From Thermoplasmata archaeon (GTDB taxonomy: Archaea > Thermoplasmatota > E2 > JACPAO01 > JAHFTW01), in assembly GCA_034667725.1 (NCBI GenBank), contig JAXDQS010000010.1, positions 217,937 through 281,936 of the forward strand: a stretch of 64,000 bases of DNA, in the 5' to 3' direction. Positions 6,621 through 35,119 of the stretch are shown piece by piece; positions within the stretch are counted from its first letter, which is position 1, and each line of letters begins with the position of its first letter. The notes beneath the pieces are model-generated. The model saw only the letters and a program-made list of their open reading frames with translations, was not told the DNA's origin and did not search any database. The position numbers and the translations under genes are program-made.

Positions 6621-6626
6621 GCCATC

Positions 6627-6668: not shown

Positions 6669-6682
6669 CGCTCGGCGGATGG

Positions 6683-7201
6683 TCAGTCGTTGCCCCGCAT
6701 CGCCGGCTTGTGGGCTCCGCCCTGCACCGGCTTCGCCTTCACCGGCGACCCGCACACGATGCACTCCTCGCGCTTCGGCATCGTGTCGAACCAGCGGCCG
6801 CACCCGATGCAGCGCGGCCGGAAGTCCAGCGTCGCCGCGATGCCTTCGGTGTTGACCGTCTGCGTGCGCACGCCCAGGCGGCGCGCCACATCGAGGAGCG
6901 TGTAGTCGTCCGTGACCAGCGTGCCCGCCAGGTCGACGGCGAGGGCCGCGAGGCTCAGGTCGGCCGCGGACAGGCGGACCAGGTTGCCGGCCGCGGTGGC
7001 GACGTCGCGCACCCGCTCGACGGCCTCGGGTGTTGCGTCGCGGACCTGGAGGCCGGTGGCGATCCAGTTGTCGTAGCGGCGCGCGTCGCGGCCCCCCGTG
7101 GAGATTTCGGCGGCGGCCTCCGGCGTCGTGGCCCAGTTGGCAGAGCGGGGCGGGTCTTTGCCGCCAAGGAGCAGGCTGGTGTCCAGGACGAGCCAGGGCA
7201 C
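6683..7201 (-). CDS. nob1: Nob1-like PIN-domain endonuclease with C-terminal zinc ribbon
   Basis: 172 aa. N-terminal PIN-like acidic residues (VLDTS..., TDDYTLLDVA) and C-terminal CIGCGRWF...ECIVCG zinc ribbon, the archaeal Nob1 architecture. Confidence 0.6.
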   Translation of the reverse strand: MPWLVLDTSLLLGGKDPPRSANWATTPEAAAEISTGGRDARRYDNWIATGLQVRDATPEAVERVRDVATAAGNLVRLSAADLSLAALAVDLAGTLVTDDYTLLDVARRLGVRTQTVNTEGIAATLDFRPRCIGCGRWFDTMPKREECIVCGSPVKAKPVQGGAHKPAMRGND

Positions 7202-7290
7202 GGCGCGGGATTCAGCCCTCGCGGTGATGAGGCTGCCGGGTCGCGTGCCGCCGCGGCGCCCTTTTCAACTTCCCTCCGGTCGCCGCGCCC

Positions 7291-8208
7291 ATGGCCAAAG
7301 TCGGATTCGTCGGCGCGGGCACCATCGGCGCGAACTCCATCTATGCGACGCTGGCGCTCACCGACCGCATCTCCGAGATCGCCGTCGTGGACGTCAACGA
7401 GGCCGCCGCCGTCGGCCGGGCCCTCGACCTCAACACCGCGTCGGTCGCCTTCGGCCGCCGCACCCGAGTCCACGGCGCCACCGATTACGCGATCCTCAAG
7501 GGCAGCCAGGTCGTCGTGGTGTCGGCGGGGATGCCCCGCAAGCCCGGCATGACGCGCGCGGACCTTCTGGGCATCAACATCAAGATCCTCAAGTCGGTGT
7601 GCGCCGAGGTCAAGAAGCACGCCCCCGACTGCATCTTCCTCCTGGTCACGAACCCCGTCGACATCCTGCTCTACGTCTGCTGGAAGGAGCTCGGCTTCCC
7701 CCGCGAGCGCGTCCTCGGCATGACCAGCCTGCACGACTCGGCCCGCCTCACCGACATCGTCCGCGACGCCACCGGCGATCGCGAGCTGCGCGCCACCATC
7801 CTCGGCGAGCACGGCGAGACCATGTTCGTCGCCCCCAGCCTCAGCAGCCCCGAGATCAAGGCCGCCGACTGGGAGGCGCTGGAGAAGAAGACCCGCGGCC
7901 GCGCCATGGAGATCATCGAGCGCGTCGGCGCCACCGCCTACGCCCCCGGCGCCTGCACCGGCCGCATGGTCAAGGCGTTCATCGAGGACACCCACGAGGA
8001 GATTCCCACCGGCGTCATCCTCACCGGCGAGTACGGCCACCGCGATGTTGCCACCGGCGTCCCCGCCGTCCTGGGCCGCGGCGGCCTGGTGCGCGTTGTC
8101 CAGTACGAGCTGCGCCCCGACGAGAAGCAGAAGCTCGAGGTCACGGTCCAGGCGGTCAAGGACAAGATCGCCGAGGGCATGGCGATGCTGGCGGCGCCTG
8201 CGAACTGA
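7291..8208 (+). CDS. mdh: Malate dehydrogenase (LDH-like family)
   Basis: 305 aa. Rossmann GFVGAGTIG; substrate loop GMPRKPGMTR carries Arg at the discriminating position, which points to malate rather than lactate. Confidence 0.8.
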   Translation: MAKVGFVGAGTIGANSIYATLALTDRISEIAVVDVNEAAAVGRALDLNTASVAFGRRTRVHGATDYAILKGSQVVVVSAGMPRKPGMTRADLLGINIKILKSVCAEVKKHAPDCIFLLVTNPVDILLYVCWKELGFPRERVLGMTSLHDSARLTDIVRDATGDRELRATILGEHGETMFVAPSLSSPEIKAADWEALEKKTRGRAMEIIERVGATAYAPGACTGRMVKAFIEDTHEEIPTGVILTGEYGHRDVATGVPAVLGRGGLVRVVQYELRPDEKQKLEVTVQAVKDKIAEGMAMLAAPAN

Positions 8209-8391
8209 GCGGGAAGGGTCGCGCGTCAGCGCGCGCGGCCGCACGCGCAGCCGTGCGCCGCGGCCGTGATGGTCCCTGGCGCCCGCTCAGCCCGCCCGTC
8301 TTCTCGTCAAGATTCGGCCACGGGTTTCTTCATCACTGCGGGCAGGCCCGCCACGCCGGCCCGCTTTAAGCCGTCGCGCCTTCGGGGGACC

Positions 8392-8865
8392 ATGGACGAC
8401 ATCCCGGTCGTGGCCGTGCGCGACACCAAGGACCTGGCGGCGGCGCGGCAGGCGCTCGAGGACGCGGACGGCCCGGTGCTGGTGCGCATCCAGCGCGAGG
8501 GCTTGGCCGTCGTGAAGGCGCTGGCCGACGACGGCGAGCTGTGGGCGGACGCCAAGGACGTCCATGCCGACGAGGCGCTGGACATGGCGGTGGCGGGCGC
8601 GTCGCGCATCGTGCTGCACGCCGACTCCGTCGCGCCGGACATGCTGGACGAGATGGGCGACGTCCTGGGCCCGAGCCTGGCGGTGGTGGCGCGCAAGGCC
8701 GACGCCGCGCTGGCCGAGAAGCTCATGGGCTGGGGCGCGGCCTTGATCGTGCAGGAGCGCGGCGACGCCGGCGACGTCGAGTGCTACCTCGACCACGGCA
8801 GCCGCCTGGAGACGCTGCACGCCGCCGGCGACGGCGACGACGCCGCCGGCGACGCCGAAGAGTGA
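8392..8865 (+). CDS. Hypothetical acidic protein
   Basis: ORF with GC3-biased codon usage; 157 aa from the internal ATG. No family recognised. Confidence 0.4.
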   Translation: MDDIPVVAVRDTKDLAAARQALEDADGPVLVRIQREGLAVVKALADDGELWADAKDVHADEALDMAVAGASRIVLHADSVAPDMLDEMGDVLGPSLAVVARKADAALAEKLMGWGAALIVQERGDAGDVECYLDHGSRLETLHAAGDGDDAAGDAEE

Positions 8866-8867
8866 GC

Positions 8868-9320
8868 ATGGGCGACCTGGAGACGGCGCTCGCCTTCGTG
8901 GCGCGCCGCGCCGGCGCCCGCGCGATGCCGCCGGCGGCGTGGGTCCACCACCTCAGCCTGGAGCTGGCGTGGATGGCCCCCGCGCAGGCGCGCGCGTTCG
9001 TCGAGCGCGCCATGGCCGCCGGCGTGCTGCGGCTGGCTGGCGACGACGCGGAGCTGGCGTTCGACCCGCGCGCGGTCGAGGCGCCGCGCGGCTTCCGCCC
9101 GAACCCCGACACGGGCGCCGCCCCGCCGGAGGACCCGTTCGTGGCGTGGCTCGGCCGCGTGGGCGCCGCCACCGGCAAGGACCGGGCCGCCGTGCTGGCC
9201 GACGTGGCCGCGCGCCAGCAGGCCATGGGCGGGATGCTGACGGCGTGGGCGGCGCTGCTGTGGGCGGCGGCGGACGCGGGCCTCGACGTCAGGTCGGCGG
9301 CGCAAGCGTCCGCAGGATGA
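8868..9320 (+). CDS. Hypothetical protein
   Basis: ATG 3 nt after the upstream stop (operon-like spacing). Ala-rich helical protein; no family recognised. Confidence 0.4.
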   Translation: MGDLETALAFVARRAGARAMPPAAWVHHLSLELAWMAPAQARAFVERAMAAGVLRLAGDDAELAFDPRAVEAPRGFRPNPDTGAAPPEDPFVAWLGRVGAATGKDRAAVLADVAARQQAMGGMLTAWAALLWAAADAGLDVRSAAQASAG

Positions 9321-10518
9321 TGGGCACCGCCAGCGCGCCCACCAAGTGGATGCGGCGCACGCCCCACGCGATTGGCAGCAGGCCGACGAGGGCCGCCGCC
9401 ACCAGGATGGCCAGCCCGAGCGGCCCGGCCAGCACGCCGACGAGCGCCACCAGCAACGCGAGGGCGGCGAGCGGCACGCGGCGCGGGTCCCACTGATGGA
9501 CGCGCGCCGCCACCAGGCGGTCGAGCCCGCGCACCGCGGCCCAGCCGAGCACGGCGGCGGCCACGGTCGCGGCCAAGGCGTCGAGCATGGCCGTCGGCGG
9601 GCGGCCCGCCGTCCACGGCTGCGCCTGGCCTTGCGCGACGACGGCGAGCGCGATGCCGGTGCGTGCCTGGCCGGTCGTCCAAAGCAGCCCGAGCGACAGC
9701 GCGTGGTGGGCGGCGCCCACGGCCGCCAGCGCGGCGGCGGAGGCGCGCGCGTCGCCGCGTCCGTAGGCGAGGGTTGCGCCCATGGCTGGGGTGGCGCCCG
9801 GCGTCACCGCGGTCCAGAGGGCGGCCGCGCTGCCGCGCAGCGTCGCGGCCCAGCCGGCCAGGAAGGCGTGCCGGCTCCAGCGGCGCGGCGCCGGCTGCTG
9901 CGGCGGCAGCCGCGCCGCGCGCAGGCTGGCCAGCAGGCCGGCGGCGCCGAACAGGCCGGACAGCAGCGGCAGCAGTGGGCTGGCCGGGATTGGCAGCAGG
10001 CCGGCGGGGCGCAGGCCGAGGCAGGCCCAGCCGAGGGCGGCGCTGGCGGCCAGGACGGCGGCGGCGCGCAGCCGCTGCTGCTCGCGGGCGAGGACCCACG
10101 CGAGGGCGGCAAGGACGGTCCAGGGCGCCGCGGCCGCCGCCACGCCGCGCAGGTTGCCGGGCTCCAGCAGCAGCCACTTCAGCAGCCATCCGAGCGGGAC
10201 CGCGACCAGGGTCGCCGCCAGCGTGGCGTCGGCGGCCGCGCGCACCGCCTCGCGGCCGCGGCCGGCGAGCACGAGGCGGTGGGCCGGCAGCGCGCCCAGG
10301 TCGTCGTCGGGCACGCCGAGGTAGGTGCCGGGCAGCAGGCTCGCGAACGATTGGGTGGCGGCCATCGCGGCGAGGCCCGGGACGAGCGCTTCGTGCGGCG
10401 CGAGCGTGGCGGTCGCGACGGCGGCGAGCGTGTTGGCGTGCAGGCCCGGCAGCAGGCCGAGCAGCCCGGCGGCTGCACCGACGAGGGTGGCGGCCGCCAG
10501 GGTCGCAAGGTCGATCAT
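9289..10518 (-). CDS. Polytopic membrane protein, possibly TctA/DUF112-like transporter
   Basis: ~409 aa with many Gly/Ala-rich TM helices. Start overlaps the upstream stop by ATGA at 10515-10518. The long ORF-track frame 9289..12582 is a run-on through the upstream genes. Confidence 0.45.
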   Translation of the reverse strand: MIDLATLAAATLVGAAAGLLGLLPGLHANTLAAVATATLAPHEALVPGLAAMAATQSFASLLPGTYLGVPDDDLGALPAHRLVLAGRGREAVRAAADATLAATLVAVPLGWLLKWLLLEPGNLRGVAAAAAPWTVLAALAWVLAREQQRLRAAAVLAASAALGWACLGLRPAGLLPIPASPLLPLLSGLFGAAGLLASLRAARLPPQQPAPRRWSRHAFLAGWAATLRGSAAALWTAVTPGATPAMGATLAYGRGDARASAAALAAVGAAHHALSLGLLWTTGQARTGIALAVVAQGQAQPWTAGRPPTAMLDALAATVAAAVLGWAAVRGLDRLVAARVHQWDPRRVPLAALALLVALVGVLAGPLGLAILVAAALVGLLPIAWGVRRIHLVGALAVPIILRTLAPPT

Positions 10519-11057
10519 GGGACGGGCGCGAAGGTGTGGCAGAGGCAGGCGGGCGCGTAGCGCACGAGGCCGGCGCCCCGGAACGGCCCAGCCGGCGCGG
10601 CGCCCGCGAGCCGGATGCGGTGGCCTTCCTGGTCGCGCAGCTGGTCGCCTTGCACGACGCCGGCCAGCACGACGGGCCGGCCGGCCCATGCGTCGGGGTC
10701 GGCGGCGAGGGCGTGCCAGCCGGGCTCGGGCAGGGCCGTGGGCGCGGCGGCGTCGACGTCGAGGGCGTCGGCCCACAGCACCAGGCTGCCGCCGAGGCGG
10801 AGGACCCGGCCCGTCGCCGTGGCCTGCGCGCCCACGGGGACCTCGGCGGCGCGCACGGCCAGCTCGACGCCGTCGCGCGCCAGCCAGACGGTGCCGTCGC
10901 GGGCGCGGACGACCGTGCCCGTCACCTGGATGGCGCCTTGGCCTTCGTAAAGCGCCGCGTCGCGCGGGTGGACCTCCGGCGGCGGGGCGTGGGCTAGCAC
11001 CGAGAGCGTGCCGGCAAGCAGGAGGCCGAGGGCGGGCAGGAGGCGGGGTCCGAGCAC
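10515..11057 (-). CDS. Secreted hypothetical protein
   Basis: 180 aa with N-terminal signal peptide (MLGPRLLPALGLLLAGTLSVLAHA); operon-like with the flanking genes. Confidence 0.45.
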   Translation of the reverse strand: MLGPRLLPALGLLLAGTLSVLAHAPPPEVHPRDAALYEGQGAIQVTGTVVRARDGTVWLARDGVELAVRAAEVPVGAQATATGRVLRLGGSLVLWADALDVDAAAPTALPEPGWHALAADPDAWAGRPVVLAGVVQGDQLRDQEGHRIRLAGAAPAGPFRGAGLVRYAPACLCHTFAPVP

Positions 11058-11108
11058 GGGCGGGCAAGGGGCGCGTGCGGGGTTGGCCGGGAACGGACGG
11101 GCCTTGGC

Positions 11109-12563
11109 TCAGGCGAGGCGGGCCACGACGGCCGGGATGGCCTCGGCCACGTCGGTGGCAAGCGCCCCGTCGCCGCGCAAGGCGGCCGCGATCTCCCCGG
11201 CGGCCCCGAGGAGGTAGGCCGCTGCTGCTGCCGCCTCGAACGGCTTGGAGCCCACCGCGAGAAGCTGGGCGGTGATGCCCGCGAGCACGTCGCCCGTGCC
11301 GCCGACCGTGAGCGTCGGGTGGCCGCGGCGGCAGAAGCGGGCGCGGGCGCCGTCGGTGACCAGGTTGGCATGGCCCTTCCCGAGGACGCCCTTGCACATC
11401 ACCACGACGCCGTGGCGGCGGGCGTAGGCTTGCACGTTCGCTGGTGTCGCCTCCCTCCCGGAAAGGTCCAGGAACTCGCGGGCGTGGGGGGTCAGCACCA
11501 TGCGCCGGCCGTGGCTGCGGAACAAGGCGGGCGAGAGGGCGTCGAGGCCGTCGGCGTCCACCACGGTCGGCTTGCGGGCCTGGGCGGCGGTGGCGAGCGC
11601 GCCGTGGGCGAGCGCGATGCTCTCCGGGTCGTGGCCGAGGCCGGGGCCCAGCAGCAGGGCGGTGGACTTCGGGAGCAGGCGGCGCAGCGGCTGGAGCGCG
11701 GTCGGCGTGAGGTGGCGGCCCGGGTTGCCGTCGTGGACGATGGCGTGCGGGCCCCAGTTGCGCATCACGGCGGCGGCGTCGGCGGGGGCCACGCAGTGGA
11801 CGAGGTCCGCCCCGGTGCGGTAGGCCGCCATCGCACTGTAGTAGGGCGCCCCCACCAACGGGAGCGAGCCGCCCACCACCAGCACGACGCCGTTGTCGCC
11901 CTTGTGCGAGTCGGCGCGGCGCGCGATCCAGCCTTCGTGCAGGTCGCCGACCCCGACGTCCGCGGCGGCCGGCGGGACGCCGATGTCCGCCACCACGATG
12001 CGCCCGGCGTTCGCGGCCGCCATGCCCTCCTTCGGGGCGTGGAACGTCACGGTCGCGTCCGGCCGGACCGCCATCGCGGTGCCCAGCCCGCTCGGCAGGT
12101 CGCAGGCGACCCGGACCGCGTCCTTGCGCGCCTTGAGCCAGCGCAGCATCGACGCGTACGGCCCGCGCGGCACGCCCTTCAGGCCGGAGCCCAGGAGGCA
12201 ATCGACGACCGTCGGCGCCGCGGCCCACGCCGGGTCCGGCTTGCCGGCCCAGGTCACGACCGTGTCCTCCTGCAGGTGCCCGAGGTAGCCGGCGCCCGGC
12301 CCCTGGAACGCGGCGCGCGGCTCGGCCAGCACGGCCCAGGCGCGGCGCCCTTGGCGTTGCAGCAGCGCCGCGGCGGCCAGGCCGTCGCCGCCGTTGTTGC
12401 CCTTGCCGCACAACAGCACGATGTCGCCGGGCGGCGCGATGCGCAGCACCTCGGCCGCCAGCGCCTTGCCGGCCCGCGCCATCAGGTCGGCAACAGGGAC
12501 GCCAAGCTCCGCCGCGTTGCGGTCCAGGCGCCGCGCCTCTGCCCACGGGATGGCCTTCGGCAC
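11109..12563 (-). CDS. nnr: Bifunctional NAD(P)H-hydrate repair enzyme (epimerase plus ADP-dependent dehydratase)
   Basis: 484 aa. N-terminal YjeF-N domain (LLCGKGNNGGDG) and C-terminal carbohydrate-kinase-like domain (GKGHANLV...GGTGDVLAG). Confidence 0.8.
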   Translation of the reverse strand: MPKAIPWAEARRLDRNAAELGVPVADLMARAGKALAAEVLRIAPPGDIVLLCGKGNNGGDGLAAAALLQRQGRRAWAVLAEPRAAFQGPGAGYLGHLQEDTVVTWAGKPDPAWAAAPTVVDCLLGSGLKGVPRGPYASMLRWLKARKDAVRVACDLPSGLGTAMAVRPDATVTFHAPKEGMAAANAGRIVVADIGVPPAAADVGVGDLHEGWIARRADSHKGDNGVVLVVGGSLPLVGAPYYSAMAAYRTGADLVHCVAPADAAAVMRNWGPHAIVHDGNPGRHLTPTALQPLRRLLPKSTALLLGPGLGHDPESIALAHGALATAAQARKPTVVDADGLDALSPALFRSHGRRMVLTPHAREFLDLSGREATPANVQAYARRHGVVVMCKGVLGKGHANLVTDGARARFCRRGHPTLTVGGTGDVLAGITAQLLAVGSKPFEAAAAAAYLLGAAGEIAAALRGDGALATDVAEAIPAVVARLA

Positions 12564-12608
12564 CCAGCCTGCAAAGGGTCAAGCGCCATTCAAGCTTCGC
12601 CCTGGCCG

Positions 12609-13004
12609 ATGATGCCTGGAATGGGCGACACCCGCCAGATGGCCGCCATGATGAAGCGCATGGGCATCGAGATGCGCGACGTCGAGCAGGTCGAGGAGGT
12701 CGTGGTGCGCACCGCCACCAAGGAGTACCGCTTCAAGCGGCCCGAGGTGTCGATCATGAAGGCCCAAGGCCAGGAGACCTGGCAGATTCAGGGCAAGGCC
12801 GTCGCGTCCGACCGGGCCGGCGCCGCCGTGCCCCCGCCCGCCGTGCCTTCCGTGTCCTCCGCTCCTGCCGCGCCTTACGCCCCCTCGCCCGACGACGTCA
12901 AGGTCGTCATGGAGGCAGCCAAGGTCCCCGAGGCGAAGGCCTGCGAGGCGCTCCTGGCCACCGGCGGCGACCTGGCCGAGGCCATCCTGCGGCTGTCCGC
13001 CTAG
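12609..13004 (+). CDS. nac: Nascent polypeptide-associated complex protein (archaeal NAC alpha) with C-terminal UBA-like domain
   Basis: MMPGMGDTRQMAAMMKRMGIEMRDVEQVEEVV... matches the archaeal NAC N-terminus; C-terminal tail has the UBA-like AKACEALLATGGDLAEAILRL. Confidence 0.8.
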   Translation: MMPGMGDTRQMAAMMKRMGIEMRDVEQVEEVVVRTATKEYRFKRPEVSIMKAQGQETWQIQGKAVASDRAGAAVPPPAVPSVSSAPAAPYAPSPDDVKVVMEAAKVPEAKACEALLATGGDLAEAILRLSA

Positions 13005-13008
13005 AGAC

Positions 13009-13223
13009 GATTTCAAAATTCCAAGTGGCCTGCGCGCGCCGGTTTGCAAGGAGTGCAAGGAAGGCCGCAATCCGCCGCAAAGCGGCGCGCCCTTCGGGGC
13101 GGTTTGCCGCCCCCCAATACGGCGTCAGGGGGTCCTTGGCGGGCCTCCAGCCCGCCGGCGGACCCCCTTCCTTGGACTGCGATGGCCGGAAACCGCCGCA
13201 GGCCTTCTTGGAATTTTGAAATC
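13009..13223. repeat. ~215-bp imperfect palindromic element with AT-rich 17-bp terminal inverted repeats (MITE-like or structured RNA)
   Basis: GATTTCAAAATTCCAAG at 13009-13025 is the exact reverse complement of CTTGGAATTTTGAAATC at 13207-13223. Further arm pairing GGCCTGCG/CGCAGGCC, CGGTTT/AAACCG, CAAGGAAGG/CCTTCCTTG; internal hairpins GCCGCaaaGCGGC and CGCCCttcgGGGCG. Confidence 0.5.
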
Positions 13224-13228
13224 ATCTC

Positions 13229-14752
13229 TTAGGCCGTTTCGGCCTGGTCCGCCGCCAGCTGCCGGTCCCGGCTGCGCTGCACGAAGAACATCGGCACGCC
13301 GGCCAGGATCAGGCCGGACGCGATCAGCGCCTGCGCGAGGAACTTGAAGTAGATGATGCCGACCACGAACGCCGAGGCCGCCATGAACAGCAGCGGCACG
13401 AACGGGTAGAGCGGCGTCTTGAACGGGCGCTCGACGTCGGCGTGGGTGCCCTTGATCCCCAGCCATGGGACGCCGCGCATCCGGACGTGGGCCCACGAGG
13501 TCGGCACGTAGAACAGGAAGATGGCGAACACCACCATGATGACGAGCTGCTCGTAGCCGCCGGTCATCACGAGCAGGCTGGCCCAGATGGCGGTGAAGTA
13601 GATGGCCCACCCCGGGACCGAGTGCTTGTTGAGCGTGCCCATCGAGCCTAGCAGGCTGCCGTCGCGGCTGAAGGCGTAGAACACGCGGGGCCCCGTCAGC
13701 AGGAAGCCGTTGACCGTGCCGAACACCGACACGAGGGCGACGGCGCTGATGAAGTCGTAGCCGCCGATCCCCAGCACGGCGCCTGCCGCCTCGGGGGCGA
13801 TGCGCTGGTTGGCGACCCCAAGCTCGACCGCCCGGTCGATGGGGATGACGTGGAAGTAGCTCGACGCCAGCGCGATGTAGATGGCGCTCGTGATGAGCGG
13901 GCCGACGATGAGTGCCACGGGCAGGTTGCGCCGGGCGTTGCGGACCTCGGAGGCGACGTAGGTGGCCTGCGGCCAGCCGTCGAACGCGAACAGCGACAAC
14001 GCAAGGGCGCCGCCGAACGCGGCCACGAGGGCGCCGCCGCCCATGCCCTCCGGCGCGAAGCCGCCGCCTTGGGCCTGGTAGGCCTGCGGGTGGGCGGTGC
14101 CGAACACGAACACGATGACGACCAGGCTGGCCAGGCCCAGCACCTTGGCGATGGTGCTGACGTTCTGGATGCGGCCGGCGATGGCGGCGCCGCGCGAGTT
14201 GATGAACGCCAACAGCAGGATGACGGCGATGGCCAAGAACGCAGGCCCGTAGGCGGGGATCGTGATGGGGTCGATGTGGACCAGCTTGCGGGTGCAGGCG
14301 CCGGCGAGGCTCTCCTCGACGCAGGGGCCGGTGTCCACGAGGCTCGTGAGGGCGAACTTCGTGCCCGGCATCGTGCCGCCCATACGCTCGACGAAGTAGG
14401 TGGCGAACCGGCTGAACGCCACCGCGACGCCGGCGATGATGCCGCTCTGGATGACCCAGAACTGCGACCACCCGAACAGGTAGGCGCTGAACCGGCCGAT
14501 GCCCTCCTTGAGGAAGTGGTACTGGCCGCCGGCGCGCGGGAACATGCTCGACAGCTCCGCGAACGTCAAGGCACCCAGCACCGTCAGCACCGCGCCGGCC
14601 ACCATCACCAAGAGGATGAGGCCCGGGCTCGGCAGCACCTCCGCCATGTCCGCGGGCAGCAGCAGGATGCCGGAGCCGATCATCGAGCCGACGATGATCG
14701 TGATGGCCTCGAACAGCCGCAGGTTCTGCTTGAACTTGATAGGCCCGCCCAT
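13229..14752 (-). CDS. Amino acid permease (APC superfamily transporter)
   Basis: 507 aa, ~12 TM segments, typical APC N-terminal region (ITIIVGSMIGSGILLLP...FAELSSMFPRAGGQYHFL). Confidence 0.75.
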   Translation of the reverse strand: MGGPIKFKQNLRLFEAITIIVGSMIGSGILLLPADMAEVLPSPGLILLVMVAGAVLTVLGALTFAELSSMFPRAGGQYHFLKEGIGRFSAYLFGWSQFWVIQSGIIAGVAVAFSRFATYFVERMGGTMPGTKFALTSLVDTGPCVEESLAGACTRKLVHIDPITIPAYGPAFLAIAVILLLAFINSRGAAIAGRIQNVSTIAKVLGLASLVVIVFVFGTAHPQAYQAQGGGFAPEGMGGGALVAAFGGALALSLFAFDGWPQATYVASEVRNARRNLPVALIVGPLITSAIYIALASSYFHVIPIDRAVELGVANQRIAPEAAGAVLGIGGYDFISAVALVSVFGTVNGFLLTGPRVFYAFSRDGSLLGSMGTLNKHSVPGWAIYFTAIWASLLVMTGGYEQLVIMVVFAIFLFYVPTSWAHVRMRGVPWLGIKGTHADVERPFKTPLYPFVPLLFMAASAFVVGIIYFKFLAQALIASGLILAGVPMFFVQRSRDRQLAADQAETA

Positions 14753-17721: not shown

Positions 17722-17744
17722 CGCGGGACGACAGCCGGATGGCC

Positions 17745-17750
17745 ATTATA
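17745..17750 (-). promoter_or_regulatory. TATA-like element in the divergent intergenic region
   Basis: attata/tataat lies 27 nt from the antiporter start (17721) and ~46 nt from the plus-strand start (17794). Confidence 0.3.
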
Positions 17751-17793
17751 GCCCCGCCACAACGCTTACAGGCGCCCGGCCTGCGTCCCGGCC

Positions 17794-19233
17794 ATGCGCG
17801 TGCTTGCCGTCCTCCTCCTTGCCCTCCTGGTCCTGGTCCCCGCGGCCGACGCCCAGCACGCCCACGAGGAGGGCGGCAGCGTGCGCATCCTTGCGGAGGG
17901 GCCGGTCCACGCCGGCGTCCTGGCCGGCTTCGCCGCCTTGGCCTTGGGCGACGACGACGCGCCGGACTTCCACCAGCAGAACCACCTGCGCGTGACGCAG
18001 GGCGGCCTGGTGCTGTTCGAGACCACGCCCGACTCCGGCCACGACTACGACGGTGTTGCCCGCTTCGCGCTCGCCTTCCCCGCCCCTGGGCCGTACCGCG
18101 TCGAGGCGCTGGACGACGCCGGCGCGGTCCTCGGCGCGCTGGAGGGCGAAGCGTTGCCCGTCCCCACCGAGGCCGGGACCTTGGCCGTCGCCCACAGCCT
18201 GGTCGACGGCATGGTGCGCTTCGACGCCATCGTGTCCGTCGGCGGCGTCCAGGTGCCGTCCCGGCTGCAGCTCGAGGCGATGGCGGACGGGAAGCCCGCG
18301 GCCCGCCTCGCGACCGTGGCCGTCGCGCACGTGGTGGAGCTTGGGCTCGACCCCGGCGTGACCTACCGGTTCCGCCTGCTCGCGACCCCGCTCGACGCGC
18401 CGTTCGCGCCCGTCGTCCACGAGGAGACGTTCGCTGTCGAGGCCGCCCCGCGCGCCGACCCGCCCGCCCTGCCGTCCCCCAGCCCCATGCCGGGCAACGC
18501 CGTGGTGCGCGCCGGCGCGGGCAACGCCACCCTGCTCGGCACCTACGACCCCTGGACCGCGGTCGGCCCGGACACCCGCGCCCGCTTCGCCGCCGTCGGC
18601 CCCGCCGGCCCCATCGCCGTCCGGATGCACGACGCCGCCGGCCGGGTCCTGCTGGCCACCGACCAGCTCGCCGGCCCCGTCGCCGAGGTCACGACCACCC
18701 GCCCGCCCGGCGCCTACACCATCGCGTACACCGCCGGCGGCGAAACCGTCGAGCTGCCGTGGACCGTGCTGCCGCCCAGCGACCCGTCCGCCGTCGGCCC
18801 GCAGGACCTCGTCTTCACCGCCCCCGCCGCCCAGGCCGGCGTCCCGTTCGACCTCGCGCTGGCCTCGCACGACCTCGCCGGCCGCCCGTTCGACCACACC
18901 GAGGTCGAGCTCGAGGTCGCCCGCGCCGGCGTCCCCGTCGTCCAGGCCAAGCTGCACACCCACGGCGACGGCAGCTTCCCGCTCCGCCTCGCCCTTCAGG
19001 AAGGGCGCCAGGACGTGCGCGCCCAGGTCTACCCGCTGGAGGCGCGCACCGCCCTGGCCGGCCCCGCCCTGCTGGCAAGCTTCGACGTGGCCCCCGGCGC
19101 CCCCGCCGAGCCCACCCCTGCCCCACAGGACCAAGAGGCCGAGGCGGCGCCCTTGGGCGCGCCCCTGGCCGTGCTGGCCGTGCTGGCGGCGGGCGGGCTG
19201 CGGCGCGGGGGCCGCGGCTGCAAAGGATTTTGA
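17794..19233 (+). CDS. Secreted protein with C-terminal membrane-anchor tail
   Basis: Signal peptide MRVLAVLLLALLVLVPAADA; C-terminus GAPLAVLAVLAAGGLRRGGRGCKGF (short motif, hydrophobic helix, basic end). Confidence 0.5.
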   Translation: MRVLAVLLLALLVLVPAADAQHAHEEGGSVRILAEGPVHAGVLAGFAALALGDDDAPDFHQQNHLRVTQGGLVLFETTPDSGHDYDGVARFALAFPAPGPYRVEALDDAGAVLGALEGEALPVPTEAGTLAVAHSLVDGMVRFDAIVSVGGVQVPSRLQLEAMADGKPAARLATVAVAHVVELGLDPGVTYRFRLLATPLDAPFAPVVHEETFAVEAAPRADPPALPSPSPMPGNAVVRAGAGNATLLGTYDPWTAVGPDTRARFAAVGPAGPIAVRMHDAAGRVLLATDQLAGPVAEVTTTRPPGAYTIAYTAGGETVELPWTVLPPSDPSAVGPQDLVFTAPAAQAGVPFDLALASHDLAGRPFDHTEVELEVARAGVPVVQAKLHTHGDGSFPLRLALQEGRQDVRAQVYPLEARTALAGPALLASFDVAPGAPAEPTPAPQDQEAEAAPLGAPLAVLAVLAAGGLRRGGRGCKGF

Positions 19234-19265
19234 GGCACCAGCGCCGTGGGCCGCTCGGTCTGTCG

Positions 19266-21383
19266 ATGCGTCCAGCGATGCTGCTTCCAGCCTTGGCCCT
19301 GGTGGGCCTGGGGCTTCTCACGATGATCCCGCACGAGGCCCAGGCCCAGGCGGTCATCGACAACGGCTTCGTCCAGGTCGGCGTCCGCGCCGACGGCGCC
19401 CTCATCGCCTCCCCGGTCTCGACCGACGGCGACTGCACCGTCGTCGGCGGCGTCACGGTCTGCACCGGCGGCGCCGGCACGGGCCTGGTCGGCCTGCGCC
19501 ACATGGCCACCGGCTACGAGTCGACGGCCGACGGCTGCGCCTGCGAGACCTGGGGCGTGTCGTACGACGGCGCCGTGTCGGGCTACGCCCGCAGCGGCAG
19601 CGCCGGCCCCGGCTCCGGCCTCACGCCGGTGGCGTTCTCGAACACCGCCAGCACCGCCGTGGCCACCGTGCGCGCCGGCGACCTGCTGGTCACCCACGAC
19701 TTCCACCCGACGGCACTCACCAACGACCTGTACGAGGTCAACGTCACCATCGAGAACACCGGCCCCGCCCACGTCGACCTGCGCTACCGCCGCGCCATGG
19801 ACTGGGACATCCAGCCCACCGCCTTCAGCGAGTTCGTCACCATCGAGGCCAAGAGCCCGCTGCCGACCGCGCTGTCCTGCTCCAGCGACGACGGCTTCGC
19901 CACCGGCAACCCCCTCAGCGGCCTCGGCTCGATCCTGATGTACGGCCCCGGCTGCGGCTCCGACTTCATCGACTCCGGCCCGAGCGACCACGGCGCCGCC
20001 TTCGACTTCCACTTCGGCGTCATCGCGGCCAGCGAGAAGCGCGAGTTCCGCATCTACTACGGCGCCGCCTCCTCCGAGATCGACGCCTACGCCGCCATGG
20101 CCGCGGTGGGCGCCGGCGTCTGGACCTTCGGGCAGTGCAACCCGGGCAGCAACCCCGCCTGCGACACCAGCACGGGCGCGCCGGCCACCTTCATGTTCGG
20201 CTTCGACGACGTCGACATCATCCCGGTCAAGCCCGCCAACATCCCGCCCGTCGCCGCCGGCACCTACCTCGCCCGCACCGCCTGCGAGGACTCCCGCGTC
20301 TCGTTCGACGGGAGCAAGAGCACCGACCCCGACGGCTTCGTCCGCACCCACGCCTGGACCTTCGGCGACGGCGGCAACGCCACCGGCGAGAAGGTCGACC
20401 ACCTCTACAAGGCGCCGGGCCCCTACACCGTGACGCACACTGTGATGGACAACAACGGCGCCCTCACCACCCGCACCTTCACCATCGTGAGCGCCGGCGA
20501 CCCCGACTGCTGCCTCAACCTCAACCCGGTCCCGCCCATCGACGCGATGGAGTTCGACGCCGTCGGCTTCCTGCCCATCGTCTGGGACTTCGAGGACGGC
20601 CCCTACAGCTTCGACCTGTTCCCGCTGCCGACGGGCGCCACCTTCAACCCCGCCACCGGAGAGTTCGGCTGGCCCACCGCGGCCGGCGACGCTGGCGCCT
20701 ACACCCTCACCCTGCTGGCCACGGACGGCGGCGGCTGCACCGTCGGCACCGAGGTCGACATCGCCGTCCGCCCGTACCCGCCGCCGCTGCCGCCCGCCGA
20801 GGACCATGACCTCGACGGCATCGCCAACGCGCAGGACAACTGCCCCGACCGCGTCAACCGCGACCAGGGCGACGCCGACCGCGACGGCCTCGGCGACCTG
20901 TGCGACGACGACCCCGGCCTCACGGGCCCGGAGGCCGAGGCCGCGCGCCGGCTGCGCGCCGGCGGCGCGCGCGACCGCGACCGCGACGGGGTCGCCGACG
21001 TGGCCGACGTCTGCCCCGACGTGGCCGACCGCGACCAGAAGGACCTCGACGGCGACCGCCTCGGCGACCTGTGCGACCCGGACGCCGACGGCGACACGGT
21101 GCGCGACCAGCCCGCCGCCGGCATCCCGGCCGACAACTGCCTCCAACTGGCCAACGCGGACCAGGCCGACGCGGACGGCGACGGCGTCGGCGACGCCTGC
21201 GCCGCCGACCGCCTCGCCGCCGCCCAGGCGCGCAGCAGCGACGCCGAAGGCCGGCCCGCCGTCCTGGCCGCCGAGCAAGGCGGCCTCGGCTCGGGCGCCA
21301 AGGCGTTCATGCTGGCGTTCGCCGCCGCAGGCCTCCTGGGCCTGCTGGTGGTCTTGGCCATCCTGCGCCGCAACGAAGCGTAG
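19266..21383 (+). CDS. Surface protein with PKD domain, Ig-like domain, TSP3 calcium-binding repeats and C-terminal TM anchor
   Basis: Signal peptide; PKD motif (FDGSKSTDPDGFVRTHAWTFGDGGNATGEKVDHLYKAPGPYTVTHTV); Asp-rich DxDxDGxxDxxDNCP repeats; C-terminal AFMLAFAAAGLLGLLVVLAILRRNEA. Paralogous to 57188..59221 and 61203..63659. Confidence 0.6.
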   Translation: MRPAMLLPALALVGLGLLTMIPHEAQAQAVIDNGFVQVGVRADGALIASPVSTDGDCTVVGGVTVCTGGAGTGLVGLRHMATGYESTADGCACETWGVSYDGAVSGYARSGSAGPGSGLTPVAFSNTASTAVATVRAGDLLVTHDFHPTALTNDLYEVNVTIENTGPAHVDLRYRRAMDWDIQPTAFSEFVTIEAKSPLPTALSCSSDDGFATGNPLSGLGSILMYGPGCGSDFIDSGPSDHGAAFDFHFGVIAASEKREFRIYYGAASSEIDAYAAMAAVGAGVWTFGQCNPGSNPACDTSTGAPATFMFGFDDVDIIPVKPANIPPVAAGTYLARTACEDSRVSFDGSKSTDPDGFVRTHAWTFGDGGNATGEKVDHLYKAPGPYTVTHTVMDNNGALTTRTFTIVSAGDPDCCLNLNPVPPIDAMEFDAVGFLPIVWDFEDGPYSFDLFPLPTGATFNPATGEFGWPTAAGDAGAYTLTLLATDGGGCTVGTEVDIAVRPYPPPLPPAEDHDLDGIANAQDNCPDRVNRDQGDADRDGLGDLCDDDPGLTGPEAEAARRLRAGGARDRDRDGVADVADVCPDVADRDQKDLDGDRLGDLCDPDADGDTVRDQPAAGIPADNCLQLANADQADADGDGVGDACAADRLAAAQARSSDAEGRPAVLAAEQGGLGSGAKAFMLAFAAAGLLGLLVVLAILRRNEA

Positions 21384-21438: not shown

Positions 21439-22041
21439 TCAGAACAGGCTCGCGACCCCGGACACCATGCCGGAGAAGAACGCCTCGACCTGGCCCATGA
21501 AGCTCGCGTCGGCCTCGACGTCCGCCTGGGCGTCGACCGAGGCGTCCGCCTGCAGGCCCGCGTCGAGCTGGGCGTCGGCCGCGACGTCCGCGTCGACCGC
21601 CGCGTGGGCGTCCGCGGCCACGTTGGCGGCCGCGTCGAGCGCGCCGTCGACCGTGCCGTGGACCGTCGACTGGGCGGTCGCGGTGGCGGTGCCGGCCAGG
21701 CCGAGGCCCGTGCCGAGGGCACCGGTGGCGGTCGCCTGCGCGTCCGCCGTCACGTCGGCCGCGGCGTGGGCCGCGGCGTCGAGCTGGGCGTCGGCGTCGA
21801 CGCTGGCGTCGAGGGCCGCGTCGAGGTTGGCGTCGACGTTGGCGTCAAGGCTGGCGTCCGCATCCGCGGCGGCGTCCAGGCCAGCGTCCGCGGCGGCGTC
21901 GGCGGCAGCGTCCGCCGCGCCGGTCGCGCCGAGGCCGAGCATGGCCGTGCCCGGGATGGCCAGGGCCAGCAGGGCAGTCAGGGCAAGGGCAGCAAGGCCC
22001 GCCTTCTTCCAGGGTTTCTTGGGGGTGTGTTGGGGTTCCAT
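21439..22041 (-). CDS. Ala/Asp-rich low-complexity secreted protein
   Basis: Signal peptide after the internal Met (MEPQHTPKKPWKKAGLAALALTALLALAIPGTA), then ~150 aa of D-A-rich degenerate repeats; hydrophobic C-terminus. Confidence 0.4.
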   Translation of the reverse strand: MEPQHTPKKPWKKAGLAALALTALLALAIPGTAMLGLGATGAADAAADAAADAGLDAAADADASLDANVDANLDAALDASVDADAQLDAAAHAAADVTADAQATATGALGTGLGLAGTATATAQSTVHGTVDGALDAAANVAADAHAAVDADVAADAQLDAGLQADASVDAQADVEADASFMGQVEAFFSGMVSGVASLF

Positions 22042-22252
22042 CGGGGTCACCTTGTCTCCTGGTCCGACGGCGCGGCACATAAGGCGACGCGATACGCCGG
22101 GAAACTCCCAGCACCTCCTCAGGCAGGCTTATCTACGAACCATCCTGAGCCGGCCCCCGACGCCTGTGCCGGGTCCCCCCGGGTCGGTCGTTGAAAGATG
22201 AAGGAGGGCGGGGCGCCACCGCGGCCCAAACTCCCTATGGAGACAGACAACT

Positions 22253-22621
22253 ATGGCAATGTTCGTTCGTTTTGAGACCCCCAAGGAGCTTGGGGCGCAG
22301 ATCTACGAGACCATCGAGAAGGCCCGCAGCACGGGCCGGGTCGCCAAGGGCGCCAACGAGGTCACGAAGCAGGTGGAGCGCGGCGTGGCGAAGTTCGTCG
22401 TCATGGCCGAGGACGTCACCCCCGAGGAGATCCTCGCCCACATCCCGCTTTTGTGCGAGGAGAAGGGCATCCCCTACGGCTACGTCCCCTCCAAGGCCGA
22501 GCTCGGCAACGCCGCCGGCCTCGCCGTCGGCACCGCCGCGGTCGCCATCGTCGACGCCGGCACCGCCGCCGAGTCCGTCGAGGACGTCGCCAAGAAGACC
22601 AGCGCCCTCAAGAGCGCGTAA
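22253..22621 (+). CDS. rpl7ae: Ribosomal protein L7Ae
   Basis: 122 aa; the [37 protein letters not shown] region is the conserved L7Ae/L30e fold signature. Confidence 0.85.
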
Positions 22622-30966: not shown

Positions 30967-31037
30967 GCCCTCCTGGGCGCGGACGTCCCGCGGGGCGCAG
31001 CCCCCGGTTGGGGAGAAAACCAACCTCCAACCCTCTC

Positions 31038-31043
31038 TTATAT
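31038..31043 (+). promoter_or_regulatory. TATA-like box, leaderless spacing to the ATG at 31069
   Basis: ttatat in a GC-rich context ~29 nt upstream of the ATG that begins the signal peptide MRPLLLVATALLMF. Confidence 0.3.
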
Positions 31044-31068
31044 GGGGACGGCGCCCATCGACCTACCC

Positions 31069-33003
31069 ATGCGCCCCCTCCTCTTGGTGGCCACCGCCCT
31101 GCTGATGTTCGCGTTCGTGGCCAGCGCCCCGCACGCGGACGCCCAAGGCGCTTCCACACTTACCGTCACCATCTGCGCCCAGCCGACCTATTCCGAGTCC
31201 AAGGACACGGCCCTGTGCGAGGGCCGCGGCTTGGCGGGCGCCACCGTCCGCGTCACCCGCAACGGCCCGCTCGGCAACAACGTCGGCGCCGTCGACCGCA
31301 GCGCGACCACCGACGCCAACGGTGTCGCCGCCTTCGACGCCTTGGCGGACGGCACCTACAACCTCCAGGCGACCCGCGCCGGCTTCGCCGCGCGCACGGC
31401 CACCGTCGAGGTCGCGGGCGCCACCAAGGCGGCCTACACCCTCGCCGGCGTCCCGGTCGAGTTCCAAGGCATCGTCAAGGACGCCGCCGGCAAGCCGGTG
31501 GCCGAGGCCATCGTCACGGTGTGCTGCTCGCGCGACTCCTCGTACCAGCCGCCCGTCGCCACCGGCGAGGACGGCCTGTTCCGGGTCGCGACCACGGGCG
31601 GCTACCAGTCGGTCGGCGCCTACGACGCCCCAGGCTTCGTGCCTTACAACGCCGAGGTGCTGGTGGACGGCAGCCGCCAGGACATCACCCTGGAGCGGGT
31701 CCCCGCCCAGGACGCCGAACTCCACGGCGTCGTGCGCGACCAGGACGGCAAGCCCGTCGCCGGCCTGCGCATCGACGCCAACCCCTCGTGCTGCCACACC
31801 GAGCCGATGCCGGCCGACGAGCCGGGCGCGCCCGCGTCGTCGGTGCCCCCCAGCCCCGGCTACGCCTACTACGGCAACCACACCACGACCGCCAGCGACG
31901 GCTCCTACGCGATCCACGTCTACGGCGGCGCCACCGTCGGCCTGCGCGTCGGCTCCGAGGACTTCGCCCCGCTCTACAAGGACGTCCAGGTCGGCAAGGG
32001 CGCCTCCGTGCGCGCGGACCTCGACGTCAAGCGCTACCCGCCCCGCGACGCCCGCATCGAGGGCCGCGTCACCGACGGCGACGGCCACGGCATCGGCTCG
32101 GTCGCGATCACGGTCAACAACCCCGAGTTCGGCCGCACCGAGCAAGGCGGCCAATGGTGCGCCGCCGCCCCCGTGCCGATGATGGCAGAGGGCGACGCCA
32201 TCGCCAAGCCCGCCATCTGGGCCGGCCCGGAGTGCTCCCTCAGCGTGCAGGCCGACGGCAGCTTCTCCGGCCTCGTGACCCCCGGCTACAGCATCGTCAC
32301 CGTGTACTACGTCTGCATGGAGGGCGACTGCGCCGACGGCTACTACCCGTCCGTCCGCACCCTGGTGCTGCGCTCCGGCACCCAGCGCCTCGACGTCGCC
32401 CTCGTGCCCCGCCCCGGCCCCGACGCCACCCTGTCCGGCTACCTCGTGGACGCCGACCAGCGCGAAGGCATCGCCGGCCCCGACGCCCGCATCGACCTCT
32501 ACAACCTCGACAACGGCGCCTGGGGCAGCGCGGTCGCCGACGCGCAAGGCTCCTACAAGATCCGGCTCCGCAGCGGCCTCCACCAGGTCACCGCCTACGC
32601 CGACGGCCACCTCCACTGGGAAGGCATCGTCAGGGTCGAGCCCGGCGACAACGCGCTCGACATCCTCATGACGGCCGGCCAGGACACCGGCTACGGCGGC
32701 TGCTGCTACCTCGCGCAGGACAGCAAGGGCATGGCCACCACCGCCACCGCCTCCCCGGCCCCGATGACGCCGGGCGACGACGGCGGCAGCCGCGTCGCCG
32801 AGCAGGAGCTGCGCCAGAACCTCGCCGCCAACACGCCCGCCTTCGAGGACCTCAACGGCGGCCTCGGCCCGTACGACCCGGACGAGCGCCCCGCCCCGAA
32901 CAACGGCACCGGCACCCGCGCCAGCCCGGCGCTGGGCCTGCTGACGGTGCTGGGCGTCGCGGCCGCGATGGTCGTGGCGCGGCGCAAGGGCCGCGAATCC
33001 TAG
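31069..33003 (+). CDS. Surface protein with carboxypeptidase-regulatory-like beta-sandwich repeats and C-terminal TM anchor
   Basis: Signal peptide; repeated GxxGAxVxV...DxxGxxxF...DGTYxL modules; C-terminus SPALGLLTVLGVAAAMVVARRKGRES. The ORF-track start at 31042 would begin inside the TATA-like box. Confidence 0.55.
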   Translation: MRPLLLVATALLMFAFVASAPHADAQGASTLTVTICAQPTYSESKDTALCEGRGLAGATVRVTRNGPLGNNVGAVDRSATTDANGVAAFDALADGTYNLQATRAGFAARTATVEVAGATKAAYTLAGVPVEFQGIVKDAAGKPVAEAIVTVCCSRDSSYQPPVATGEDGLFRVATTGGYQSVGAYDAPGFVPYNAEVLVDGSRQDITLERVPAQDAELHGVVRDQDGKPVAGLRIDANPSCCHTEPMPADEPGAPASSVPPSPGYAYYGNHTTTASDGSYAIHVYGGATVGLRVGSEDFAPLYKDVQVGKGASVRADLDVKRYPPRDARIEGRVTDGDGHGIGSVAITVNNPEFGRTEQGGQWCAAAPVPMMAEGDAIAKPAIWAGPECSLSVQADGSFSGLVTPGYSIVTVYYVCMEGDCADGYYPSVRTLVLRSGTQRLDVALVPRPGPDATLSGYLVDADQREGIAGPDARIDLYNLDNGAWGSAVADAQGSYKIRLRSGLHQVTAYADGHLHWEGIVRVEPGDNALDILMTAGQDTGYGGCCYLAQDSKGMATTATASPAPMTPGDDGGSRVAEQELRQNLAANTPAFEDLNGGLGPYDPDERPAPNNGTGTRASPALGLLTVLGVAAAMVVARRKGRES

Positions 33004-33835: not shown

Positions 33836-35119
33836 ATGGAGGAGGCGGCGCCCACCGAGAGCCCCTTGCCGGGCGCCGGCGCCAAGGGCAAGCCGGTGCG
33901 CGTCCACCCCTACGCGCTCGAGCTGTCCACGGCCGCCGAGCTGCGCCGCGACCCGCGCATGGTCACCCTGTTCTGGGCCGGCCTGGGCACGGCGCTGGTG
34001 CTGCTGGGATTGGGGCTCGCCAACCGCTTCAGCCCCTGCCTGAACGGCGTCGGCCCCGAGCCCTGCGCCACCCCCGCGGCATGGACCAGCTGGGTCCAGC
34101 TTCCCCTGTTCGGCGGCCTTGCCCTGCTGGGCTTCGGCTTCGTGCAGCGCCAATGGGCCCGCCGCGTCACGCTTGCCGGCTGGCTGCTGTTCGGGTTCTA
34201 CTGGGCGCTCACCGCGCAGGACCTGTTCGTGGCCGAGGGCGGCGACATCGTCAACCTCTGCTTCGCCATCGTCGGCGTCTACTTCTTCGTCTACCTGGCC
34301 TACCACCAATGGCTCTCCGAGGCGCGCGGCATCGAGAACCTCACCGTCCGGTTCCTCAACATCGCCACCTTCGTCGCCGCCGGCTCCTACTTCGTCATCG
34401 ACAAGATCGAGCCGGTCCGCAAATGGCTCATCCTCACCGTCAGCCGCCACACCGAATGGATGCTGGGGCTGTTCGGGCAAGGCGCCGACGCCGGCCTCCG
34501 GGCCGTCTACAACCCCGCCGGCAGCACGAGCGACTTCCAGGCCGACCTGGCCCGCTTCTACTACGAGGGCCACCTCAACCACTGCCCCTCGCAGCCGAGC
34601 GACTGGTTCTCCAGCCTGATGCACTGGGACCCGTTCGCCCGCCAAGCCCTCGACGCCTGCCGCGACTTCTCGGCCCACGAGGCCGTCATCGTCCCCGTCT
34701 CGATCATCCTGGCCTGCACCGCCCTCCAGTCCATCATGCTGTTCGTCGGCCTGTTCATGGGCACCCCGGCCCCATGGAAGCGGCGCCTGCTGGCGTCGGC
34801 CATCGTCGCCGCCGTCGTGTACGTCCTCAACCTGCTGCGGAACACCGGCATCGTGTGGTTCTACGGCCAAGGCGAGGCCTCGTTCTGGATGATGCACGAC
34901 GCCGTCGGCAAGGGCGGCAGCCTGGTCGCCATGATCCTCATCGCGTTCGCCGCCTTCGCCTGGTTCCCCGAGTTCCTCAAGGCGCTCGTCGGCGTGCTGG
35001 ACCTGCCGCACCGCGACGGCCCCATCGAGCGCACGCTGCGCCTTGGCAGGCGGCGGCCCGACCAAGGCGCGCCGCCAGCGGAGCCGCCGGCCGAGACGCC
35101 GGCACCCCCCGTCCACTGA
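33836..35119 (+). CDS. Polytopic membrane protein, candidate exosortase/archaeosortase-family enzyme
   Basis: 427 aa, ~8 TM helices. Cys293 sits in a TM helix (SIILACTAL) and NLLRN lies 42 residues later, reminiscent of the archaeosortase catalytic Cys/Arg arrangement recalled from the literature. Family assignment is tentative. Confidence 0.4.
   Translation: MEEAAPTESPLPGAGAKGKPVRVHPYALELSTAAELRRDPRMVTLFWAGLGTALVLLGLGLANRFSPCLNGVGPEPCATPAAWTSWVQLPLFGGLALLGFGFVQRQWARRVTLAGWLLFGFYWALTAQDLFVAEGGDIVNLCFAIVGVYFFVYLAYHQWLSEARGIENLTVRFLNIATFVAAGSYFVIDKIEPVRKWLILTVSRHTEWMLGLFGQGADAGLRAVYNPAGSTSDFQADLARFYYEGHLNHCPSQPSDWFSSLMHWDPFARQALDACRDFSAHEAVIVPVSIILACTALQSIMLFVGLFMGTPAPWKRRLLASAIVAAVVYVLNLLRNTGIVWFYGQGEASFWMMHDAVGKGGSLVAMILIAFAAFAWFPEFLKALVGVLDLPHRDGPIERTLRLGRRRPDQGAPPAEPPAETPAPPVH

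Follow-up and report, generated by a model that had tools for sequence, protein, structure and literature searches.

The 64,000-nucleotide stretch of contig JAXDQS010000010.1 analysed here (the window; 72% guanine plus cytosine, GC), from the metagenome-assembled genome (MAG) of a Thermoplasmata archaeon, carries three genes, labelled P1, P2 and P3, that form a paralogous family of surface proteins. Each protein joins its own N-terminal head to a common C-terminal cassette of about 370 amino acids (aa), made up of a PKD domain, a He_PIG immunoglobulin-like (Ig) domain, three full thrombospondin type 3 (TSP3) repeats, a hydrophobic helix and a final RR motif. The duplications behind the three genes are old, and heads and stalks differ in their histories. 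We consider it probable that these are modular surface proteins of high-GC Thermoplasmata in which interchangeable binding heads sit on a Ca2+-stiffened, C-terminally anchored stalk, and that the family has grown by old duplications and head replacement. The three open reading frames (ORFs), picked out in a preliminary description of the window, are real, translate cleanly and are organized as follows.

19266-21383 (+): P1, 705 aa
19266-19346 (+): P1 signal peptide, about aa 1-27, judged by eye from ...AQA followed by QA
19347-20225 (+): P1 head, aa 28-320, an unnamed supersandwich domain
20226-20501 (+): P1 PKD domain
20502-20783 (+): P1 He_PIG-type Ig domain
20784-21206 (+): P1 TSP3 region
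21207-21383 (+): P1 linker, helix and RR tail
57188-59221 (+): P2, 677 aa
about aa 1-30 of P2 (+): P2 signal peptide
57278-58075 (+): P2 head, a second unnamed supersandwich domain, with six invariant Cys
58076-58354 (+): P2 PKD domain
58355-58660 (+): P2 Ig domain
58661-59065 (+): P2 TSP3 region
59066-59221 (+): P2 tail
61203-63659 (+): P3, 818 aa, with TTG 61203 as the first start codon past the stop of an S15 peptidase gene
about aa 1-23 of P3 (+): P3 signal peptide
61548-62456 (+): P3 IgGFc_binding head (PF17517), aa 116-418
62529-62810 (+): P3 PKD domain
62811-63095 (+): P3 Ig domain
63096-63500 (+): P3 TSP3 region
63501-63659 (+): P3 tail

The NCBI protein QOD77_1861 [Thermoplasmata archaeon] corresponds to P2 without a difference; its NCBI/JGI gene call gives 689 aa from an ATG at 57152, a start 12 codons earlier. 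The MAG contig, of 487 kb, is also present in JGI metagenome 3300044738, and the JGI gene call for P3 has 818 aa too.

The proposal that P1-P3 are a paralogous multigene family of surface proteins is borne out by both BLASTP and Pfam. P2 and P3 share 52% identity over 310 aa (E 4e-79), P1 and P3 46% (E 2e-47) and P1 and P2 33% over 587 aa (E 6e-46); for the common cassette the identities amount to 40-52%. According to Pfam, all three proteins contain PKD_4/PKD, He_PIG and TSP_3 in the same order. For P1, P2 and P3, respectively, PKD_4 (PF18911 / PF00801) scores 78.5, 74.0 and 69.3 bits (gathering cut-off 27) and TSP_3 (PF02412) scores 47.6, 64.0 and 69.6 bits (cut-off 25). He_PIG (PF05345) reaches 32.4 bits in P1 and 40.5 in P2 (cut-off 24) and in P3 stays just under the cut-off at 21.4 bits, where the region is 49% identical to that of P2 and aligned throughout. 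The PKD motif WxFGDG is present in each protein. A six-frame motif scan of the window detected nine full TSP3 cores of the form DNCP..(N/D)xxQxDxDxDGxGDxC, three in each of the genes and none in any other ORF. The resemblance is not limited to Asp-rich low-complexity stretches, because the PKD and Ig regions also share identity (42-47% and 29-49% between pairs of proteins, compared with 52-60% for TSP3 and 27-44% for the tail). Two details of the architecture first described had to be amended. Signal peptide and PKD domain are both present, but they are separated by a head of about 290 aa in P1, 265 aa in P2 and 420 aa in P3, and the CPxT...RFC pattern ascribed to the Ig region holds for P2 and P3, but in P1 is replaced by a 'DCC' variant without RFC. 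The C-terminal transmembrane-type tail was correctly recognized, all three proteins ending in a hydrophobic helix followed by RR.

The heads are of different kinds. That of P3 matches the IgGFc_binding family at 123.8 bits (124-126 across scans, cut-off 25.6), over model positions 2-297 of 297. For the P1 and P2 heads, Pfam and NCBIfam models gave no match even at E 10, and sequence comparison with PDB chains found nothing. Confident structural models of both strongly match the galactose mutarotase-like beta-supersandwich fold and identify them as two distantly related, divergent and unnamed beta-supersandwich domains. The structures that match best are N-terminal, non-catalytic domains from GH15, GH94 and GH65 enzymes, and because identity to these is only 8-16%, functions cannot be transferred at the level of residues; no catalytic motif could be matched. 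The beta-supersandwich fold is typical of carbohydrate-binding or carbohydrate-active modules.

Both of these head types occur far outside the window. The P1 head has 229 homologs, mostly bacterial and about 330 aa long, corresponding to the domain plus an anchor, and the anchors found elsewhere include PEP-CTERM, VPLPA-CTERM, PEPxxWA-CTERM, LPXTG-annotated, RTX and autotransporter barrel types. With one domain carried on several types of anchor, the P1-type head shows the pattern of a 'choice-of-anchor' cargo domain and behaves like one. Its alignment contains the conserved polar motifs CxCEGWG, RYRRxMDWD and DHGxxFDF, and residues C64, C66, E67, W69, R149, D152, W153, D154, E162, D214 and H215 are invariant or nearly so. 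When the P2 head is aligned with eight Thermoplasmatota homologs, the invariant residues are mainly Cys and Gly, six of them cysteines. A profile search with the P2 head among 1.84 billion representatives returned 1808 clusters at E ≤1e-3, of which 787 were at E ≤1e-30. This domain is nearly always N-terminal, in host proteins of 300-1357 aa. Downstream of it, in 60 proteins scanned (59 profile matches and P2 itself), we found DUF11 (33), PKD (6), Big_9 (5) and TSP_3 (4), together with Calx-beta, RTX, cadherin-like, dockerin and other domains. Occurrence on such different anchors and stalks is as expected of self-contained displayed modules. Being large, widespread and unnamed, the P1-type and P2-type heads are good candidates for domain-family definitions and for glycan-binding tests.

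The family also has further members. A fourth protein, QOD77_177 (P0272, 669 aa), is encoded on another contig of the same MAG and consists of a P2-type head, a PKD domain, a 'CC'-type Ig domain, three TSP3 cores and a helix+RRR tail; the family count in the source genome, P1-P3 plus at least one more gene, is a lower bound. Full-length homologs exist in other Thermoplasmatota MAGs, some with extra PKD domains and some without TSP3 repeats. A contig scan with the three stalks gave a single full-length match (L003, in a Thermoplasmatota MAG) among the 80 loci listed, which are dominated by generic bacterial PKD/TSP3 proteins and do not include the source MAG, and a profile search with the Ig domain alone found nothing that reached E 1e-3. 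One further locus is that of a 72%-GC relative (L088; ENA ERZ27256803 k141_4819269, positions 1-13235), where at least six family genes of the order head-PKD-(Ig)-TSP3-helix stand in tandem, namely one truncated gene (TSP3, helix and RRR), two with P1-type heads and three with Choice_anch_L heads. PKD and TSP3 are present in all five genes whose N-terminal part is on that contig, and the helix+RR end in all five whose C-terminus is.

Head and stalk trees disagree with each other. The trees were built by neighbour-joining with direct bootstrap counts, a simple distance method applied here to short alignments, so that reliance is best placed on pairs with strong support only. The stalks of P2 and P3 are sisters, with 100% support when the whole stalk is used, 99% with PKD plus Ig and 88% with TSP3 by itself, and their position beneath unrelated heads points to past shuffling of modules. 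In the head tree, P2 is placed with sequences from other genomes (P0003, P0005 and P0016; 98%) and not with P0272. Similarly, P0024, with a P2-type head, and P0113, with a P1-type head, have sister stalks (97-98%). In the L088 array, genes D and E are 71% identical in the head and 52% in the stalk, the stalks thus evolving faster than the heads, and gene F shares 60% head identity with D and E but has a stalk that is nearer to B and C (49-53% vs 41-44%). Recombination, as suggested in the preliminary description, is thus upheld in the sense of module shuffling in the past. The simplest account of P2 and P3 would be an old tandem duplication followed by head replacement, P3 having most likely arisen in this way from a P2-like neighbour. 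The clear exchange of heads on a conserved archaeal stalk is, together with the two large unnamed supersandwich head families, what is modestly new here.

As for the stalk, the Asp loops of TSP3 repeats in solved animal proteins wrap Ca2+ ions, and the TSP3 region of the family is homologous to the Ca-binding wire of COMP (3fby, E 3.7e-35) and to thrombospondin-2 (E 1e-28). For the PKD domain, homology extends to PKD-like domains in clostridial collagenases. In each stalk there are 5-6 DxDxDG-type loops and 10-12 Cys, with Asp plus Glu accounting for 23-27% of the TSP3 stretch, and the Asp loops are predicted to bind Ca2+. In the arrangement that we favour, the N-terminal signal peptide would direct export, presumably by Sec, and the protein would be retained at the surface by the single C-terminal hydrophobic helix and an Arg-rich cytoplasmic stop. 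The last 370 or so residues would then serve as a common stalk-and-anchor cassette, comprising the PKD domain, the cadherin-like He_PIG Ig domain and the three complete TSP3 repeats, that positions a distinct head away from the membrane in each protein. The repeats carry five or six DxDxDG loops and paired cysteines, like those of COMP and thrombospondin. Calcium would stiffen this stalk, and the heads may bind external ligands, be they glycans, particles or other cells. The term adhesin, used for P1-P3 in the preliminary description, we infer from domain content. Most Thermoplasmata of this kind are uncultured, and their dealings with their surroundings are read from genomes alone. The family illustrates how an archaeal surface may be built, one predicted calcium-binding stalk and anchor being re-used under several outer domains.

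The helix+RR tail is not restricted to the family. It is also found in the 479-aa protein encoded upstream of P1, in a CarboxypepD_reg protein, in a 945-aa FG-GAP-like protein and in neighbours of the homologs in other MAGs, and the CarboxypepD_reg protein at 30967-33003, which shares the helix, followed by RRK, shows it to be general to exported proteins of the organism. No tail matched PGF-CTERM (TIGR04126), even at E up to 10, and the PGF motif is absent from about 25 tails examined in the window and related loci. A search of the tails for named C-terminal sorting domains gave only sub-threshold, generic helix+RR resemblance. Of 17 family tails, 15 have an aromatic residue where the helix starts, mostly Trp and often right after Pro; it may be either an ordinary interfacial Trp or a variant signal. 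One gene of the window bears on the fate of the tail.

33836-35119 (+): archaeosortase A homolog, a divergent polytopic membrane protein of 427 aa

This protein scores 123.5 bits with TIGR04125 (cut-off 75) and 59.5 bits with TIGR04178 (cut-off 23); with Pfam Exosortase_EpsH it scores 21.4 bits, which is under threshold. A typical ArtA is about 100 aa shorter. It is possibly the processing enzyme of the helix+RR tails. Its gene is placed between that of the CarboxypepD_reg surface protein and that of a giant protein of 2623 aa. The window showed no canonical PGF-CTERM substrate.

The preliminary description saw in the three genes an expanding and possibly recombining family, and we weighed the alternative that recently expanded adhesin genes have been homogenised by gene conversion or recombination between their repeats. 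In its favour, P2 and P3 lie close together and have sister stalks, a relative has a tandem array, and the repeat DNA motifs quoted at the outset are real and confined to P1-P3: GACAACTGCCC occurs six times in the window vs 0.03 expected, and the GAC-CGC-GAC-GGC-NNN-GGC-GAC type eight times vs 0.01 expected, all of them in these genes. Nevertheless, a codon alignment of the shared module shows nucleotide identity of only 60-65%, and third-position identity of 62-66%, which is near saturation because about 96% of third positions are G or C (GC3). At columns with identical amino acids, the three pairs have 121, 122 and 146 identical codons vs 111.8±4.5, 124.2±5.1 and 141.6±5.3 expected (z = 2.05, -0.43 and 0.82), in agreement with the prediction from codon usage, here taken from nine unrelated genes in the window; this DNA in effect uses a single codon each for Asp, Asn, Cys, Phe, Tyr and Ile (homozygosity 0.95-0.97). 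The longest identical runs of the three pairs, 24, 25 and 19 nt, all fall in the TSP3 consensus, and no run clearly exceeds those obtained by shuffling codon columns (P = 0.03, 0.03 and 0.50, with no correction for making three comparisons); genes of the L088 array share no run of more than 28 nt. Since codon identity is as predicted and the runs are not clearly long, the DNA-level similarity of the repeats follows from conserved D/N/C/G residues in combination with extreme codon bias, and since synonymous sites are saturated and conversion tracts are lacking, the duplications are old. Gene conversion and recent duplication were rejected on the combined outcome of the codon alignment, the run-length permutation and the codon-usage comparison. 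For the source genome the picture of a recent or ongoing expansion is largely refuted, and we regard it as very improbable. In a genome with 96% GC3, DNA motifs shared by paralogs are uninformative about recent recombination, which corrects a tempting over-reading.

Some points weigh against the model of binding heads on an anchored stalk: the supersandwich fold is also that of enzymes (mutarotases, polysaccharide lyases), the polar motifs of the P1-type head could mark a catalytic or metal site instead of a lectin site, and the tail may be cleaved, with an archaeosortase A homolog encoded in the window. The first two would suit P1 and P2 heads that are surface-tethered enzymes, for example glycan-modifying or glycan-cleaving ones, acting as anchored exoenzymes alongside the exported S15 peptidase encoded between P2 and P3. 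This seems unlikely to us, as the best structural matches are non-catalytic domains, no catalytic motif could be matched, the residues invariant in the P2-type head are mainly Cys and Gly, and the peptidase gene is not a conserved neighbour. The third point leads to the idea that the helix+RR tail is a sorting signal that the archaeosortase A homolog removes, leaving the proteins lipid-anchored in the manner of the S-layer glycoprotein from Haloferax volcanii, which for a long time was wrongly taken to have a transmembrane helix as its anchor (PMC6098224). The homolog scores above its curated cut-off, the tails have the tripartite layout of ArtA/PGF-CTERM substrates (short motif region, hydrophobic helix, basic residues), and the aromatic residue at the helix start, in contexts such as PW, WPW, LPF, WPY and PGPW, falls at the PGF site of ArtA substrates. 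Unlike those substrates, the P1-P3 tails have neither PGF nor a match to the PGF-CTERM hidden Markov model; moreover, interfacial Trp is common in ordinary membrane helices and the ArtA gene lies 12-22 kb away from P1-P3. Cleavage of the tail is therefore a doubtful alternative. Since ArtA no longer processes its Haloferax substrate when PGF is permuted (PMC6098224), we give a variant signal the rank of a minority hypothesis. A bolder proposal, that the cassette is a display scaffold specific to the high-GC Thermoplasmata lineage for the repeated grafting of unrelated 'choice-of-anchor' heads, with a hitherto undescribed aromatic-after-Pro variant tail signal processed by the archaeosortase homolog and the whole family lipid-anchored, strikes us as quite improbable.

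P1-P3 belong to modular prokaryotic surface proteins of an already known sort, and several systems invite comparison. Their repeat unit, DxDxDGxxDxxDNCPxxxNxxQxDxDxDGxGDxCD with paired Cys and Asp loops, is like that of the type 3 repeats of thrombospondin and COMP (PDB 3fby, 1yo8 and 1ux6). Unlike these, P1-P3 are archaeal and predicted to be membrane-anchored, have PKD and Ig domains upstream of only three complete repeats, and lack a C-terminal lectin-like globe and a coiled-coil oligomerisation domain. TSP3-repeat ('thrombospondin') genes are reported to be widespread in Ca. Poseidoniales, another order of the Thermoplasmatota, and have been interpreted as genes for adhesion (Rinke et al. 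2019, PMC6461757). They share phylum, repeat type and proposed surface role with P1-P3, but that work deals in gene annotations, whereas the head-PKD-Ig-TSP3-helix cassette, the head types and their exchange come here from a different, high-GC lineage.

The Myxococcus protein TraA combines a variable N-terminal recognition head, a Cys-rich stalk and a C-terminal sorting/anchor segment (PMC6372800). This head-stalk-anchor layout resembles that of P1-P3, but the TraA head is PA14-like, its stalk repeats are unrelated and it belongs to a bacterial outer-membrane system. TSP3 repeats are present in the myxobacterial TraB and MtsC (PMC6372800). P1, P2 and P3 match MtsC, a cell-cell cohesion protein (NCBIfam NF047638), partially, over the TSP3 part only, with 101, 106.3 and 94.9 bits, and a search for MYXO-CTERM in the three proteins gave at most 9.6 bits (cut-off 20) and no MYXO-CTERM Cys motif. 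At 95-106 bits vs a cut-off of 350, and without the MYXO-CTERM signal, membership of MtsC was rejected. There is also a likeness to choice-of-anchor families such as Choice_anch_L (PF26766), in that the P1-type head is found on many anchors and Choice_anch_L itself sits on the same kind of stalk in L088; unlike the named families of this type, the P1-type and P2-type heads match no Pfam/NCBIfam model.

Several exported-protein genes besides P1-P3 are interspersed among ordinary chromosomal genes in the window, including the following.

17794-19233 (+): exported protein of 479 aa with signal peptide and helix+RR tail
30967-33003 (+): CarboxypepD_reg-repeat surface protein of 678 aa with helix+RRK tail
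59275-61125 (+): S15 (X-Pro dipeptidyl-peptidase family) lipoprotein, between P2 and P3, not a family member

The peptidase lipoprotein that P2 and P3 were said to flank is confirmed by Pfam (Peptidase_S15, E 5e-40; PepX_C, E 1.9e-20) and by its N-terminus, MRLGAILPVALLGLALLAGC, with the lipobox LLAGC. No S15 peptidase is found beside the family genes at five other loci (L001, L002, L083, L085 and L088), and a conserved functional link to this peptidase was rejected on account of the missing adjacency. The same five loci have no conserved neighbours in common apart from the L088 array. P3 is followed by the gene of the 945-aa protein with an FG-GAP/PQQ-like beta-propeller, a signal peptide and a helix+RRK tail, which runs from about position 63687 past the end of the window (L090 16536-19373). 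P2, the S15 peptidase, P3 and the FG-GAP protein are encoded by four consecutive, co-directional genes for exported proteins, and this run looks like a local surface-gene cluster rather than a conserved operon.

No Pfam domain was found in the 479-aa protein at 17794-19233. Its gene ends 32 nt upstream of P1 and, because of this short gap on the same strand, may be co-transcribed with P1. The reading frame of P1 is open from 17739 to 21383 (1214 codons). The exact sequence of P1 is not in the public gene collection, and P1 is not among the listed homologs of its own head; the public gene call for P1 probably differs or is missing. Convergent on the 3' end of P1 is a gene on the reverse strand (21439-22080, -) for a 213-aa protein with a hydrophobic N-terminus, consisting largely of Asp/Ala-rich short repeats (DAxxDA...) and giving a weak, sub-threshold bactofilin match (24.8 bits, threshold 27.9).

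Among the ordinary chromosomal genes, those for the archaeal ribosomal proteins L7Ae (22253-22621) and then S28e were read from their translations, and other neighbours encode an amino-acid permease, a Na/H exchanger, UvrB, a thermosome, an NAD(P)HX repair protein, SRP54 and a TtuA-like protein. The giant ORF directly downstream of the archaeosortase homolog (34935-42806, +; about 2600 aa) overlaps the end of the archaeosortase gene and shows a strong coding signal from about 35066; its sole Pfam match is one PKD_4 domain (E 7.7e-8), and it has no C-terminal helix. On another Thermoplasmatota contig (L085), a lysyl oxidase (PF01186) homolog is encoded at 6081-7337, about 2.7 kb upstream of the family member P0024.

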